Origin: an uncultured Planctomycetaceae bacterium
Lineage (GTDB): Bacteria; Planctomycetota; Planctomycetia; Isosphaerales; Isosphaeraceae
Assembly: GCA_963833985.1 (NCBI GenBank)
Contig: CAWIAD010000002.1
Span: forward strand, 4,672,001 to 4,736,000
Reading direction: 5' to 3'
Length of the DNA stretch: 64,000 nucleotides
Position 1 is the stretch's first letter, and each line of letters opens with the position of its first letter. Shown piece after piece: positions 50,431-56,386 of this stretch. A program made the position numbers and the translations under genes. The notes beneath the pieces are model-generated. The model did not search any database and was not told the DNA's origin. It saw only the letters and a program-made list of their open reading frames with translations.

Positions 50431-50504
50431 TCTCCGCGTACCTGGCGGAGAAAGAACTTGTCCATGCGGAGGATAGGTGCTATTATGTCCGCAGAGAATG
50501 CGGA
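50431..50504. promoter_or_regulatory. Two palindromic operator-like sites TCCGC-N7-GCGGA upstream of the Fic gene
   Basis: 50431-50451 (TCTCCGC-N7-GCGGAGA) and 50488-50504. Confidence 0.5.
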
Positions 50505-50512
50505 GAATAGCG

Positions 50513-51637
50513 ATGTACATCCACCAAAGAGACGATTGGCCCAGGTTCCACTGGGATCCAGAAGGGCTGGCAAACCTGCTTGCGGCGGTTCGTCATCGCC
50601 AGGGCCGGCTCATCGGTCGGATGGAAGGGCTCGGCTTTCAACTCCGCGAGGAGGCGGTGTTGAGCACCCTGACGCAGGACGTCCTGAAATCGAGCGAGAT
50701 CGAAGGCGAAATCCTCGACGTCGAGCAGGTTCGCTCATCCCTCGCCCGCCGACTTGGACTCGATATTGGCGCACTGACGCCCGCCGATCGTCATGTCGAA
50801 GGCGTGGTCGAGTTGATGCTCGATGCCACCCGGCGATACGAAGAACCACTGAGCGAGGAACGTCTATGCGGCTGGCACGCCGCCCTCTTCCCGACCAGGC
50901 GCAGCGGGATGCAGAAAATCCGGGTCGGTGACTGGCGGGACGACGCTGCTGGCCCGATGCAGGTCGTCTCAGGCGCAATCGGCAAGGAACGGGTCCATTA
51001 CCAGGCGCCGCCAGCCGACCGGCTGTCGGCCGAGATGTCGCAGTTCCTGGAATGGTTCAATGACTCGGGGACGATCGACCCGGTCCTCAAAGCCGCCGAG
51101 GCTCATCTCTGGTTCGTCACCATTCACCCTTTCGACGACGGAAATGGGCGCATCGCCCGAGCCATCGCCGATCTGGCCCTGGCACGGTCGGAGCAAAGTC
51201 CGAATCGCTTCTACAGCATGTCTGCGCAGATCCGGCTGGAGCGAGGCGATTATTACGGCATCCTGGAACAGACCCAGAAAGGTTCGCTCGATATCACGGC
51301 GTGGATGCGGTGGTTCCTCGGCTGCCTCGATCGCGCATTCGACGGAGCGGAGGCCACGCTCGGCCACGTGCTCCGAAAAGCGCGGTTCTGGGAAGTTCAC
51401 GCCGGGGAATCGTTCAACGACCGGCAGCGGAAAATCGTCAATCGGCTGATGAACGGATTCGAGGGCAAGCTCACGTCGTCGAAGTGGGCAAAACTGGCCA
51501 GGTGCTCACAGGATACAGCCAGCCGCGATATCAACGACCTGATCAAACGCCGAGTGCTCGCGAAGAATGATGCCGGTGGCCGGAGCACCAGCTATTCGCT
51601 CATCGAGCCGGCCGCGAAGAGCGAACCAGGGCCATGA
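50513..51637 (+). CDS. Fic family protein (DUF4172 N-terminus, C-terminal HTH)
   Basis: MYIHQRDDWPRFHWD; HPFDDGNGRIAR; SQDTASRDINDL. Confidence 0.93.
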   Translation: MYIHQRDDWPRFHWDPEGLANLLAAVRHRQGRLIGRMEGLGFQLREEAVLSTLTQDVLKSSEIEGEILDVEQVRSSLARRLGLDIGALTPADRHVEGVVELMLDATRRYEEPLSEERLCGWHAALFPTRRSGMQKIRVGDWRDDAAGPMQVVSGAIGKERVHYQAPPADRLSAEMSQFLEWFNDSGTIDPVLKAAEAHLWFVTIHPFDDGNGRIARAIADLALARSEQSPNRFYSMSAQIRLERGDYYGILEQTQKGSLDITAWMRWFLGCLDRAFDGAEATLGHVLRKARFWEVHAGESFNDRQRKIVNRLMNGFEGKLTSSKWAKLARCSQDTASRDINDLIKRRVLAKNDAGGRSTSYSLIEPAAKSEPGP

Positions 51638-52399
51638 TCACCGGAATGACATATGGGGCGTATGGGGTCCGGGCGGATCGGGTCCGGGGCGGATGCTCCC
51701 GCGGTTCATCGCGTGGTACACCAGACCGTCGTCGGTGGCACGAGGAAGACGTCTCATGATGCCCGTGTTACGGCGAGATGCGGGCTTGCGTCAAGAAAAA
51801 TGAACTGACACGAATTCCTCCCATGATCACCGGAATGACATATGGGGCGTATGGGGTCCGGGCGGATCGGGTCCGGGGCGGATGCTCCCGCGGTTCATCG
51901 CGTGGTACACCAGACCGTCGTCGGTGGCACGAGGAAGACGTCTCATGATGCCCGTGTTACGGCGAGATGCGGGCTTGCGTCAAGAAAAATGAACTGACAC
52001 GAATTCCTCCCCGGCGAGATGCGGGCTTGCGTCAAGAAAAATGAACTGACACGAATTCCTCCCCGTCAAGAAAAATGAACTGACACGAATTCCTCCGTGG
52101 GGCGTATGGGGTCCGGGCGGATCGGGTCCGGGGCGGATGCTCCCGCGGTTCATCGCGTGGTACACCAGACCGTCGTCGGTGGCACGAGGAAGACGTCTCA
52201 TGATGCCCGTGTTACGGCGAGATGCGGGCTTGCGTCAAGAAAAATGAACTGACACGAATTCCTCCCCGGCGAGATGCGGGCTTGCGTCAAGAAAAATGAA
52301 CTGACACGAATTCCTCCCCGTCAAGAAAAATGAACTGACACGAATTCCTCCGTCAAGAAAAATGAACTGACACGAATTCCTCCCGACACGAATTCCTCC
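51632..52399. repeat. Nested direct-repeat array with three 5' fragments of a RAYT/Y1 transposase and eight copies of a 31-mer
   Basis: TCAAGAAAAATGAACTGACACGAATTCCTCC at 51791, 51980, 52032, 52066, 52235, 52287, 52321 and 52353; minus-strand MRRLPRATDDGLVYHAMNRG occurs three times. Confidence 0.85.
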
Positions 52400-52545
52400 C
52401 GTTACGGCTAGGAAACGGCTCTGCACAAAGGGGATTATTTCCCCCTATCTTTCCTTGCCTAGGCTCTGGCGGCCTTGTCAAAGGCCCCGGAGCATGTTAG
52501 CATTGAATTCGATGCGTTGACGATGCGACTTAGCAGAAGGTATTT

Positions 52546-52842
52546 ATGGACATTGACCGCGACATTCATCCACTCACCGATTTCAAGCGAAACACCTCCC
52601 ATTTCGTTTCACAACTGAAGGAAACCGGCCAACCCCTCGTCCTCACCATCAACGGCAAGGCGGAGCTGGTCGTGCAGGATGCCGCTTCCTATCAAAAATT
52701 GGCTGACCTCGCCGAGCGGCTGGAGACCATCCAGGCCGTCAAAGACAGCCTGGCCTCCATTGACCGGGGTGAAGGCACAGCGATGGACGAAGTATTCGAC
52801 GCACTGGAGAAGCGGATCAGACAGCCAAAGGCCCGTCCGTGA
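52546..52842 (+). CDS. Phd/YefM family antitoxin
   Basis: IHPLTDFKRNT...PLVLTINGKAELVVQDAASYQ. Confidence 0.88.
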   Translation: MDIDRDIHPLTDFKRNTSHFVSQLKETGQPLVLTINGKAELVVQDAASYQKLADLAERLETIQAVKDSLASIDRGEGTAMDEVFDALEKRIRQPKARP

Positions 52843-53189
52843 GCTTCCGCGTCGTCGTCCAGCCGCGTGCGGAAAAGGACCTACTCGACGCCGCCAGTTT
52901 CCTGCTCGACCGCAGCAAGTGATCGACCATCGCTCTTCGGTGGTAACGCGGCATCCGGGGGAAAATCAACACTCTTAAGACCAGCCCGCACCGCTGCCCG
53001 GTCGATCCCGACTCGGCGGCCTACGGCTCAGAGGTTCGTGTGCCGCTCTACGGCAAACGGCAAGGCGTCTATCGCGTTCTCTTCACGATACGTGGCAACA
53101 CCGTCTTTGTCCTGACCGTGCGGCATTCAGCCCAGCGTCGCCTTACAGACGACATCGACCAGGACGACGAGCAAGGCACGCCGCATTGA
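52839..53189 (+). pseudogene. RelE/ParE family toxin with two in-frame stops
   Basis: MSFRVVVQPRAEKDL...PHRCP...YRVLFTIRGNTVFVLTVRHSAQ; TGA at 52920 and TAA at 52944. Confidence 0.85.
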
Positions 53190-53504
53190 CGTAGGGGCTC
53201 TCACTGAGCAGTCAACGGACTGACTCTCCCCTAGCAGAACCCGCTTCTGCCATTGCTGGCACCCCGCCATCCAGGCGGCCGCGTGCTCACGGGGTACGCT
53301 TCGCTTCCGTCCCTGCGGGACCGGCTACGCCGCCCTTCCGCCCGCTGGTGCGTGGTCGTTCACCGGCGACCGCCACGCCCGGCCCCGGCGTACCGTGGCC
53401 GTTCATGCCGGCCGCTTATCGGTTCACTGAAGGAAGCGTGTCGTTTTTTGCTCGTCCCGGCCCCATTGAACATGGGGGGCCGGTCCGGCAAAGAGGGAAA
53501 TTGG

Positions 53505-55520
53505 GCCGGGTCGCCCTGGGGGATTGCTCCCCCGGGGCTCCCACAGATCCAGACGTGCGGATTTCCCGCATCTGGCTCGTCACCTCATGTCGCTGCGCGG
53601 CCCAGCAGACTGTGAACCACACGGGCCGGGGGCAGGCAGTATTGCCGTTCCAAGCGCACGAAGTCCGACCACGGTAGCGGTTTCCCCCGGCGACGCCGGG
53701 ACAGCCATCGTTTCCAGATCGCTCGCGCTCCCCGAAGGAAGTTTTGGAGACTCGCAAAGTTACCGATGATCCCGTAGTACCCGTAGTGGCCTTGCAGCTT
53801 CTGTTTGAGTGTCTGGTGCTGAACCGGAATCGGTTGATGCCGATTGACTCGGCACCACTCCGACAACGCTTGAAACGCTCGCTTGAGTCGGTTCCTCGCC
53901 GTCTTGCGCTTGATCACCCAGCCGCCTTTCCGACTTCGACCCCAGTAATGGGTGAAGCCCAGGAAGTCGAATGTCTTGGGCAAGGAGGATTCTCCTGCCT
54001 TCGTTTCGGAGTCGTCAGGATCATCCGGGTGGAACCGAACGAGCCGTGTCTTCTCCGGGTGAGCGGTCAAGCCGTACTTGCTCATCCGCTTGGGTAACAC
54101 GTCCATGATTCGCCGGGCGTCGTCTTCTCGGACTGTCCCGATCACGAAGTCGTCCGCATAGCGGATCACGAAAGCCTCCCCCTTCAGACGAGGTCGAACC
54201 TCCTGGTCGAACCATTCGTCGAGCACGTAGTGCAAGAACAGATTCGAAATCAAGGGGCTGAGAACCCCGCCTTGTGGCGCACCGTGTTCGGGAGTCGTGT
54301 GGACTCCGTCCTCCAGCACTCCAGCATTGAGCCATTTACCGATCAATCGCAGGATCACACCATCGCGCACCCGTCGCTTGAGGAACTCCCGTAGATGGCC
54401 ATGGTCAATCGTGTCGAAAAACTTTCGAAGATCAACGTCCACGATCCAGCGGCATCCCAGGTTCATCGCCCGCTTCCACAGAGAATCCAGGGCTCCGTGA
54501 GCGCCCCGTCCGGGACGGAAGCCGTGTGAGGCGTCCAAGAAGTCCGCCTCGTACACCGGCTCCAACACCATCAGGACCGCACGCTGGAGGATCTTGTCCT
54601 CGAACGTGGGAATCCCCAGCGGGCGGGTCTCGCCAGGCGAGCCTGCCTTGGGAATATTCACTCGTCGCACGGGCGGGGCCACGTACGTGCCGGACTTCGC
54701 GCGGTTGAGGAGGTCCTGAAGGTTGCCCTTCAGGTTGGTCTCGTAATCCTCCGCGGTCTGTCCGTCCACGCCGACGGCTCCATCCTTGCGGGTTAGAGCA
54801 TAGGCCTTGCGTAGCCAGAGGATGTCGATGTGATGCGCCAGGTTCGTGAAGGACATGTCCGGAGCGTTCCTGGCGAGTTCCGCGATCCGTTGTTGTTTTG
54901 TGTACACGGTCTCAGGTCTCGGCGTACCTGGCATGTTTCCCTCCAACGGTTCATGAGACGGCGTCCCCTTCCCTCCCCGGGGTCCATTCGGGCTAGTTCC
55001 CCCGGTTCCTCGGTACTATGAGACGCTCCGACTCCCTGCCGTCCATCTCGCCGCACTTCGTTTCCTTCGCTTGGCGATACCATCGTTTCGTCCCCGGTTC
55101 GTCCCCACAGCTTGGGACCTAGCTATGGATCATCCTGGAGTTGGTAAGCCGGGCTCCCGCCGGCACTTTACGATGGAGACGACAGGGTCTCCCAAGTTCC
55201 CAGAGGATCCCTTGTGATCATTCGCCCTGTTCTCCGACCCCGGCGTGACCAGGCAGGCTGAGTGGACCACGGGTTAGTTGCCTGGCGCGGCCCCCGCGTC
55301 TGACAAGGACGAGGGCTCACCACGAGGAGATTTCGGGGCTCAATCGCACGGCGTTTGATCTGGCTGTCTACGCTTCGCAGGGGTGGTTGCCCACCACCAC
55401 GCAAGACTCGCTTCCGGCTGCTGGTCCAGCTCTGCCGGACGGGATTGGCTACCCGCAGGGTTCCCTACGAAAGGGTTCAAGTTTGTGGCTATCCTCCCTT
55501 CCTGAGCTTCCTTGGCGCAA
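53505..55520 (-). mobile_element. Group II intron (IIB-like, ~2.0 kb)
   Basis: 5' end TTGCGCC; domain V GAGCCAGATGCGGGAAATCCGCACGTCTGGATC; domain VI ending GCGACCCGGC; EBS1 TGTCAG (55300-55305) pairs with the 5' exon end CTGACA. Confidence 0.88.
53585..54946 (-). CDS. ltrA: Group II intron reverse transcriptase/maturase (no endonuclease domain)
   Basis: RPLGIPTFEDK, PQGGVLSP, RYADDF, FDFLGF, domain X GHYGYYG. Confidence 0.95.
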   Translation of the reverse strand: MEGNMPGTPRPETVYTKQQRIAELARNAPDMSFTNLAHHIDILWLRKAYALTRKDGAVGVDGQTAEDYETNLKGNLQDLLNRAKSGTYVAPPVRRVNIPKAGSPGETRPLGIPTFEDKILQRAVLMVLEPVYEADFLDASHGFRPGRGAHGALDSLWKRAMNLGCRWIVDVDLRKFFDTIDHGHLREFLKRRVRDGVILRLIGKWLNAGVLEDGVHTTPEHGAPQGGVLSPLISNLFLHYVLDEWFDQEVRPRLKGEAFVIRYADDFVIGTVREDDARRIMDVLPKRMSKYGLTAHPEKTRLVRFHPDDPDDSETKAGESSLPKTFDFLGFTHYWGRSRKGGWVIKRKTARNRLKRAFQALSEWCRVNRHQPIPVQHQTLKQKLQGHYGYYGIIGNFASLQNFLRGARAIWKRWLSRRRRGKPLPWSDFVRLERQYCLPPARVVHSLLGRAAT

Positions 55521-55624
55521 TGTCAGTTCACTTTTCGTAGGATAAATGAACTGACACCGGTTTCTTGACACCGGTTTCTTGCGGCGCAACGCGAATGAGT
55601 CGGGTTCTCCGGAGACGGGCAAAC

Positions 55625-56077
55625 TCACTGGGGATAGATGACGGACAGACCTTGTAGCCTGGCGACTTCGCAGAGCCTTTCGTCGGCACATACGAAGCAA
55701 TCCATCGCTACGGGATCCCGGATCGACAACGCCACGGCAAGCTGTATCGCGTCAAGCGAATGAATCTGTCTCACTTTCCCATGAACGGCGATCAATTCGC
55801 CCGCCGACTCAAAGTGCGAGTTGAGTATCCGGATGGGCACGAACACGCGGTCTCGGATATCGGCGAAAAACCGCGCCGCCAGCCGATCGAATTCCGTGTC
55901 GGAAATCAGTCCAGTCCGTACCTTCTTCGCGAAGACCGAGAGCACCTCGGTCAGCGTCAACCTTGAGCCTGAGTAGGTTGATGTGGGTTCCCGGAGCAAT
56001 TGAGCCACCGTGTGTGATCCCGGCTCATCGTGGTACCGCTTCACCACAGCGCTCGCGTCGAAGAAGAAATCTGGCAT
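55625..56077 (-). CDS. VapC family PIN-domain toxin
   Basis: FFDASAVVKRY...E, LTEVLS, SLDAIQLAVA, CADERL. Confidence 0.9.
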   Translation of the reverse strand: MPDFFFDASAVVKRYHDEPGSHTVAQLLREPTSTYSGSRLTLTEVLSVFAKKVRTGLISDTEFDRLAARFFADIRDRVFVPIRILNSHFESAGELIAVHGKVRQIHSLDAIQLAVALSIRDPVAMDCFVCADERLCEVARLQGLSVIYPQ

Positions 56078-56386
56078 CTACGATCGGTACTCTCTCTCTT
56101 CGATGACAGCCTGGCTCATTGAACCGGGGATCTTCGAGAGCATTCGGCGGACTTCCTCGACCGAGGGTATCTCCCGGCCTTCCAGTTCGCGAGTGCAATA
56201 GGCTATGGCCTCGTGATCCACGGCGGCTTTCGATTCGGATCCCAAGCCCGTGTCAGTTCCGCGCTGATCCTCCCGGCAAAAACGGCGCAAGGCTTCTTGA
56301 AGCACAGCCTCTTCAGTGGGGAAATCGCCGCTCTGAACCTTGCGGCGAACAAATTCCCGTAGCTCGATGGTCAAGGTCACATCCAC
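56078..56386 (-). CDS. ParD-like (ribbon-helix-helix) antitoxin
   Basis: VTLTIELREFVRRKVQSGDFPTEEAVLQEAL; directly abuts the vapC start. Confidence 0.75.
   Translation of the reverse strand: MDVTLTIELREFVRRKVQSGDFPTEEAVLQEALRRFCREDQRGTDTGLGSESKAAVDHEAIAYCTRELEGREIPSVEEVRRMLSKIPGSMSQAVIEEREYRS

Follow-up and report, generated by a model that had tools for sequence, protein, structure and literature searches.

A class E-type group II intron lineage, mainly of Planctomycetota, predicted to insert into the terminal inverted repeats of TIRYT elements

A group II intron that interrupts one arm of a palindromic repeat raises the question of what directs it there: the stem-loop, the sequence of the repeat or the enzyme associated with it. 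The window analysed here, a stretch of 64,000 nt from a 10.2-Mb genome, contains such an intron. The initial annotation took it to be a non-IIC intron without an endonuclease that uses a REP-like palindrome, associated with RAYT fragments, as a safe homing site. In our reading the intron very probably belongs to a class E retroelement lineage, mainly of Planctomycetota, that is specialised on the conserved tip of the terminal inverted repeats (TIRs) of TIRYT elements and guided there by base pairing.

The intron is intact, and lies between a 5′ end TTGCG at 55520 and a 3′ end CCCGGC at 53505. Rfam models match D1–D4-6 at 55228–55448 (113 bits) and D5/D6 at 53505–53580; in the latter the AGC triad is seen, so that domain V is of the long AGC-triad type, as originally described. 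The elements that define a group II intron are present, with domain I located 5′ of the reverse transcriptase (RT) ORF, the catalytic triad in domain V and a bulged A in domain VI. They are arranged as follows.

53505–55520, minus strand: group II intron, 2,016 nt, assigned to the class E type; the sole full-length copy in the genome
55422–55427, minus strand: alpha loop
55264–55269, minus strand: alpha′ (complement of alpha), in the terminal loop of a stem-loop, a trait of IIE and IIF according to PMC3753933
53585–54946, minus strand: intron-encoded RT/maturase, 453 aa, YADD at 263, without an endonuclease domain
53545–53578, minus strand: domain V, AGC triad, GAAAU loop of 5 nt
53505–53542, minus strand: domain VI, bulged A placed 7 nt from the 3′ end by reading of the sequence

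Besides this one full copy, the family is represented in the genome by a 796-nt ORF-less relative at C2:1024209, by 5′ stubs at C2:509292 and about C2:2303.4k, and by several domain VI stubs. The ORF-less relative and the stubs also occupy TIR-type motifs. A loose regular expression for the 5′ end, run over the genome, returned noise only.

The ORF encodes RT/maturase only (TIGR04416, 340.6 bits against a cut-off of 300), and no HNH domain was found in it by Pfam search. The RT is 45% identical to a disrupted intron of pRmeGR4b, 36% to RmInt1 and 31–37% to the g1, g2 and g3 references. The RmInt1 copy is one that we take to be so from its identity level and IS context. In the RT tree, which omits class C RTs, g4 and the basal F references, the query forms a clade with the pRmeGR4b intron (SH-aLRT support 80) that is sister to RmInt1, and g1–g3 fall in a separate clade (98). 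The check by RT phylogeny that had been proposed thus places the protein with a class E copy, apart from g1–g3, and the topology is that given in PMC3552965. The frameshifted pRmeGR4b copy is taken as the class E intron S.me.I4, because PMC5894124 lists one RmInt1 copy and the disrupted S.me.I4 on that plasmid. Three traits of class E are found in the intron, namely the absence of an endonuclease domain, alpha′ in a terminal loop and the 5-nt loop of domain V; the last two are common to IIE and IIF (PMC3753933). The intron is assigned from its sequence to the class E type, the sole class E reference being frameshifted, identified by elimination and joined at a fork with support of 80. An initial reading as class F-like was dropped after the RT identities and the tree, g1–g3 standing at 31–37% identity in a clade apart, and the protein having YADD instead of the FADD of g2. 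Class C (IIC) is ruled out by the RNA features (AGC triad, 6-bp EBS1 and an EBS2 signal); with the RT/maturase-only ORF these uphold the description as a non-IIC, endonuclease-less intron.

A second group II intron family is present in the same genome, on C1 and C2 (e.g. C2:1391908, C2:2152873 and C2:1012081). Its RT is ∼36–39% identical to the one described here and clusters with the g3/class F references. The RT match is uninterrupted in two copies, and in about ten it is split at the same codon by an identical 2-kb gap, which is presumably an inserted element that has spread together with the intron.

The repeat that is interrupted, and its relatives in the window, are itemized below.

51689–52373: three N-terminal TIRYT fragments (minus strand; 51689–51790, 51878–51979 and 52133–52234) with eight tandem TIR copies
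55521–55526, minus strand: IBS1 (CTGACA), within the interrupted TIR arm (55521–55530 plus 53503–53504)
53503–53504, minus strand: CC, the start of the 3′ exon (IBS3 = C) and the tip that is cut off from the TIR motif
55547–55558, plus strand: second, intact TIR arm, forming with the split arm a miniature TIR dimer (an empty TIRtron-like unit)

The eight copies of the motif noticed beside RAYT fragments at 51.8–52.4 kb are exact occurrences of AAATGAACTGACAC at 51798–52360, next to the three TIRYT fragments, and one more lies in the outer arm of the hairpin at 55544. Each fragment has 34 codons, and they share 88% identity with the N-terminal end of a complete Y1 transposase encoded at another place in the genome. 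The genome has two complete genes for Y1 transposases (NHFH...YIEANP), bracketed by inverted GGTGTCAGTTCATTTTTC-type repeats; the TIR is found on both sides of the subclass 2.1 Y1 gene at C2:2427.2–2428.0k and C2:3098.9–3099.7k. The protein motifs NHFH and Y---NP define TnpA-Y1 subclass 2.1, which is reported to lack REPs and corresponds to TIRYT and to RAYT group 1 (PMC6006769); the group-1 RAYTs are also covered in PMC5581495. The TIRs of TIRYT elements have the common motif GGGGWSAS and are frequently found as dimers or clusters (PMC3733652). The target site reads GGTGTCAG, with one mismatch to GGGGWSAS, and the TIR family here has a GGTG tip. GG[G/T]GW[S]-type variants surround 18 of the 39 parsed Y1 genes (60 fetched, from intron-carrying genomes). 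By these sequence features the target is a TIR of the TIRYT (group-1 RAYT) transposases, whose binding and cleavage of the repeat are putative. The label REP is not supported, since subclass 2.1/group 1 RAYTs are reported to have TIRs and no REPs. A classical GTAG/CGTC REP was likewise rejected: there is no GTAG/GTGG or CGTC tag at the foot of the hairpin, and the 11-mer has only 51 copies, nearly all within about seven clusters. The intron-bearing arm is indeed a copy of the repeat, but it reads ...AAGTGAACTGACA and not, as annotated, ...AAATGAACTGACA. Positions of the cut are stated relative to the motif, not to the outer ends of the TIRYT element.

The TIR end also occurs, with ∼10 flanking bases, in ragged tandem arrays at 51689–52410, C1:2448.0k, C2:2427–2428k and C2:3098–3101k, some of which also contain N-terminal pieces of TIRYT or three repeats of an intron domain VI stub; transposase action, slippage and assembly are possible causes. 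About a dozen loci (such as C2:6223122, C2:4965336 and C1:2895354) carry members of a multicopy ORF family with a weak similarity (∼24%) to TIRYT. The family gave no Y1_Tnp match in a profile search, and may be a further Y1 subclass that spreads as an IS.

Three elements of domain I are candidates for reading the target.

55300–55305, minus strand: EBS1 (UGUCAG), intron nt 216–221; covaries with exon −1 to −6
55235, minus strand: EBS3 (G), intron nt 286; partner of base +1 in the 3′ exon, Watson–Crick in 31 of 32 rows
55325–55329, minus strand: candidate relaxed EBS2, making 3 of 5 pairs with exon −9 to −13 in this copy

The homologue sample comprised 77 loci from the best 80 of 272 confirmed relatives, mostly Planctomycetota, and 53 of its 55 domain I rows were used in the pairing alignment (L003 and L048 excluded). 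Nucleotides 216–221 form Watson–Crick pairs with exon positions −1 to −6 in 92, 94, 91, 100, 91 and 75% of the 53 rows, and every position shows four pair types. EBS1 matches IBS1 at all six positions in 66 of 95 introns with an intact domain, compared with a mean of 11.6 and a maximum of 21 on shuffling. The complementarity of TGTCAG to CTGACA, the last six bases of the exon, which had been noticed in this copy, is thus borne out by covariation. Because in the homologues both EBS1 and EBS3 covary with the flanking exons, the two splice sites are fixed. Four sequencing runs, none of which covers this locus (best share of words, 0.07), contained only fragments of related introns and gave neither a contig that joins the exons nor an empty allele. 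A relaxed EBS2 appears to pair at about −9 to −13. In a fixed register the mean is 2.61 of 5 pairs against 1.75 on shuffling, this being the best of 40 registers and the shuffles ignoring kinship; a flexible search gave a marginal mean of 4.43, against a null mean of 4.19 and a null maximum of 4.43.

ORF-less derivatives of 730–800 nt are numerous (L158, L214, L222, L223, L224, L226, L228 and L230, as well as that at C2:1024209), with intact ends and a matching EBS1, and are probably mobilised in trans. At L048 a second intron begins immediately past the 3′ end of another (tandem copies), and at L072 two intron starts are 766 nt apart (tandem or nested).

Insertion sites were pooled from the homologue loci and from domain I matches in 61 related genomes (60 further regions). 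The 150 junction matches gave 130 unique sites, with eight dropped that had no start or no flank; removal of 13 distant rows, kept as an outgroup, and three near-duplicates left 114. With the TIR core scored as [CG]T[CG][AT]C[CA], 61 of these sites, drawn from related genomes and so non-independent, are exact and 94 are within one mismatch, against a genome background of 0.3% and 4.2%. When only the published core is scored, 38 sites are exact and 88 are within one mismatch. None of the 13 outgroup sites is TIR-like. The 3′ exon opens with CC in 24 of 31 cases, 3′ ends having been located for 34 of the 114 sites, one wrongly. Among the 94 TIR-like sites are seven (GTGTCT↓G, where the arrow marks the insertion point), all in one genome, that probably belong to another palindromic repeat. 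The comparison of flanks among intron copies and close RT homologues, proposed as a check, therefore favours the initial view that a non-IIC lineage without endonuclease homes into a multicopy repeat associated with a Y1 transposase, the register being fixed and EBS1 covarying.

The main target variants (CTGACA, CTGACC, GTGTCC, ATGTCC and GCGTCC) are the TIR variants found at the 18 Y1 genes, and each recurs on separate branches of a domain I tree constructed without the EBS1 letters (FastTree, no support values). Parsimony gives 31 changes of EBS1 for 23 states, a count that some misaligned labels make too high and that is of qualitative use only. Judged from these sequences, EBS1 has switched repeatedly among TIR variants in this lineage. 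Of 88 TIR-type sites, 8 have a TIRYT gene at most 1.2 kb upstream, compared with 0.5% of genome positions (6 of 86 when two loci found via their Y1 gene are left out), several of these genes being at 11–241 nt from the site; at L017 the right TIR is split by the intron 19 nt past the transposase match. As about nine-tenths of the TIR-type sites lack such a gene over this 1.2-kb range, the identification of most as TIRs rests on the motif and an A-rich upstream tract.

Twenty of the 114 sites are at least two positions off the core, and include whole sub-lineages with other targets. In one (L008–L012 and L218) an EBS1 of CUUCGU with EBS3 C corresponds to the target ACGAAG↓G instead of TIRs, in six copies, of which five are among the 114 sites. 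A separate sub-lineage (L025, L027, L028, L035, L072 and L075) has an EBS1 of AGACAC with EBS3 C, and its target GGGTGTCT↓G is the centre of a short palindrome repeated in one genome, so that it has switched to a different family of repeats.

The stem-loop at this locus is real: excision of 53505–55520 restores the perfect 12-bp stem that had been described, with a 16-nt spacer, and the 5′ exon by itself has a folding energy of −10 kcal/mol (z = −4.4). The ribonucleoprotein (RNP) might then recognise a DNA stem-loop together with EBS1, in the manner of IIC introns, and PMC7923331 does speculate on a role for upstream hairpins in IIB introns, and on IIB/class E introns after attC hairpins. An inverted partner, called at ≥10 of 12 matches within 80 nt, accompanies 19 of the 94 TIR-type sites and none of the 20 others. 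In this genome only 2 of 69 intact AACTGACAC copies form hairpins, yet this site and the stub at C2:2303.4k are both dimers. Against this, 75 of the 94 TIR-type sites have no hairpin, and 9 of the 27 occupied sites of GACA type are dimers, the same share as the ∼30% of intron-free GAACTGACACC arms (42 dimers, or ∼80 arms, among 278 in 17 related genomes, spread over eight of them), the definitions of a dimer differing slightly between the two sets. There is thus no excess of hairpins, and obligatory insertion at hairpins as in IIC is not what is observed. Moreover, IBS1 and part of IBS2 would be hidden inside the stem, and a 6-bp EBS1 with an EBS2 signal is unlike IIC. The hairpin of the window is a TIR dimer without a transposase gene, and is present at this site because the target is such a dimer. 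Targeting of the IIC type, as the hairpin had suggested, is therefore unlikely.

The intron lies downstream of a small co-oriented operon.

55625–56386, minus strand: PIN toxin gene preceded by a small ORF, in the same orientation as the intron and 105 nt away on its upstream side

No terminator-like site was found between the PIN operon and the intron, and a promoter scan at the locus found none; the intron could be expressed by read-through from the operon. At 50477–53190 and 55625–56386 TIRs separate small genes of toxin–antitoxin type (Fic, Phd and PIN) in the manner of a cassette array, and a broken gene likely to be of RelE/ParE type is seen by eye at ∼52839–53190. Toxin–antitoxin genes also lie beside a few other insertion sites (L031, L196, L208 and L027; 150 of 162 ORFs scanned, no background).

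In the mechanism that we favour, the spliced intron RNP would read the target by three pairings, of EBS1 with the last six bases 5′ of the cut, of EBS3 with the C that follows it and, loosely, of EBS2 at about −9 to −13, with covariation as the basis for these pairings. Reverse splicing would take place between the second and third bases of GG[G/T]GWSAS, numbered from the outside, and the hairpin would not be the recognition signal. The endonuclease-less intron would most likely attack single-stranded DNA at the replication fork and prime on the nascent strand, like RmInt1 and RmInt2. The TIRs are dispersed, whether paired around a gene, arrayed in tandem, solitary or joined in short dimers, and they occur in either orientation, so that a target on the favourable strand should always be available; the GC skew along C2 showed no clean two-arm pattern. 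Over time EBS1 would have been re-tuned many times among the TIR variants. The site is plausibly safe for insertion, given its intergenic position, and the inserted intron presumably disables the TIR.

The choice of TIRs might instead reflect help from the transposase, with TIRYT supplying the intron with single-stranded DNA or a 3′-OH primer when it binds, unwinds or nicks the tip of the TIR. The persistent use of TIR tips through many changes of EBS1 would fit such help, as would the enrichment of TIRYT genes near the sites and the presence of encoded Y1 proteins in all 20 intron-carrying genomes. Y1 genes are common in any case, however (6 of 14 control genomes), most sites are distant from a TIRYT gene, and the use of IS inverted repeats by RmInt2 is explained by access at the replication fork alone. 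We consider this assistance very unlikely, and hold the same strong doubt of its extension, that the lineage is an obligate hitch-hiker on TIRYT, inserting where the HUH transposase acts, with the exposed single strand or nick replacing the missing endonuclease. If the latter were true, the repertoire of EBS1 would document the recognition sites of TIRYT through evolution, and the intron would slow the spread of TIRtrons. It is extremely unlikely that the association is passive, through loose insertion with survival only in junk repeats or through one ancestral insertion that spread with its repeat. Toxin–antitoxin genes and transposases are abundant in the neighbourhoods, and mismatched sites are tolerated, as at L013–L016, where a common EBS1 (UGUCAG) faces three different target hexamers. 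Yet the register is fixed, EBS1 and IBS1 covary exactly over several TIR variants and the distal flanks are unrelated from site to site, which together indicate independent, guide-directed insertions.

Guidance by base pairing to the TIR tip would mean that a whole intron lineage follows the sequence variants of another element's ends over >100 natural insertions, which in turn mark the conserved tip of TIRYT repeats. The insertions provide a natural retargeting table (EBS1, EBS3 and EBS2) for an endonuclease-less class E intron of GC-rich Planctomycetota, from which a targetron for this group might be developed. We found no report of group II introns targeting the repeats of TIRYT elements in the literature covered, most subscription papers lying outside it; the main text of PMC3733652, on TIRYT, does not contain the word 'intron', and no TIRYT target for class E introns is described in the accessible parts of PMC3753933 and PMC3552965.

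Among known systems, the IIC introns, including IIC-attC, similarly lack an endonuclease, and this copy does lie within a stem-loop. IIC introns are characterised by a CGC triad, an EBS1 of 3–4 bp, no EBS2 and the requirement for an upstream hairpin (PMC7923331), none of which applies here. The class E introns S.me.I4 and Cl.be.I2 (PMC3753933, PMC3552965) share the RT/X-only protein, alpha′ in a terminal loop and the 5-nt domain V loop, and the RT groups with the class E copy of pRmeGR4b at 45% identity; the ends TTGCG...GGC differ. The target resembles TIRtron/TIRYT elements (PMC3733652, PMC6006769, PMC5581495) in its Y1 gene with NHFH and Y---NP, in flanking TIRs with GGGGWSAS-like ends, and in the occurrence of TIRs in dimers and clusters as well, and differs in that the TIR family is GGTG-tipped, not GGGG. 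The closest precedent is RmInt2, a class D intron of Sinorhizobium meliloti that homes into the inverted repeats of ISRm17 (PMC4615759, PMC5894124). Both introns are endonuclease-less, of IIB type and relaxed in EBS2 pairing, and both target the inverted repeats of another mobile element, which offer two targets in opposite orientation. They differ in class (D against E) and in host, an IS for RmInt2 and here a Y1/HUH TIRYT element whose TIRs are mostly solo, dimeric or arrayed. RmInt2 is one intron in one IS, whereas here the habit is lineage-wide, with EBS1 switched repeatedly. Introns that hide in the inverted repeats of insertion sequences are thus already known, and the TIRs of TIRYT elements are a new case.
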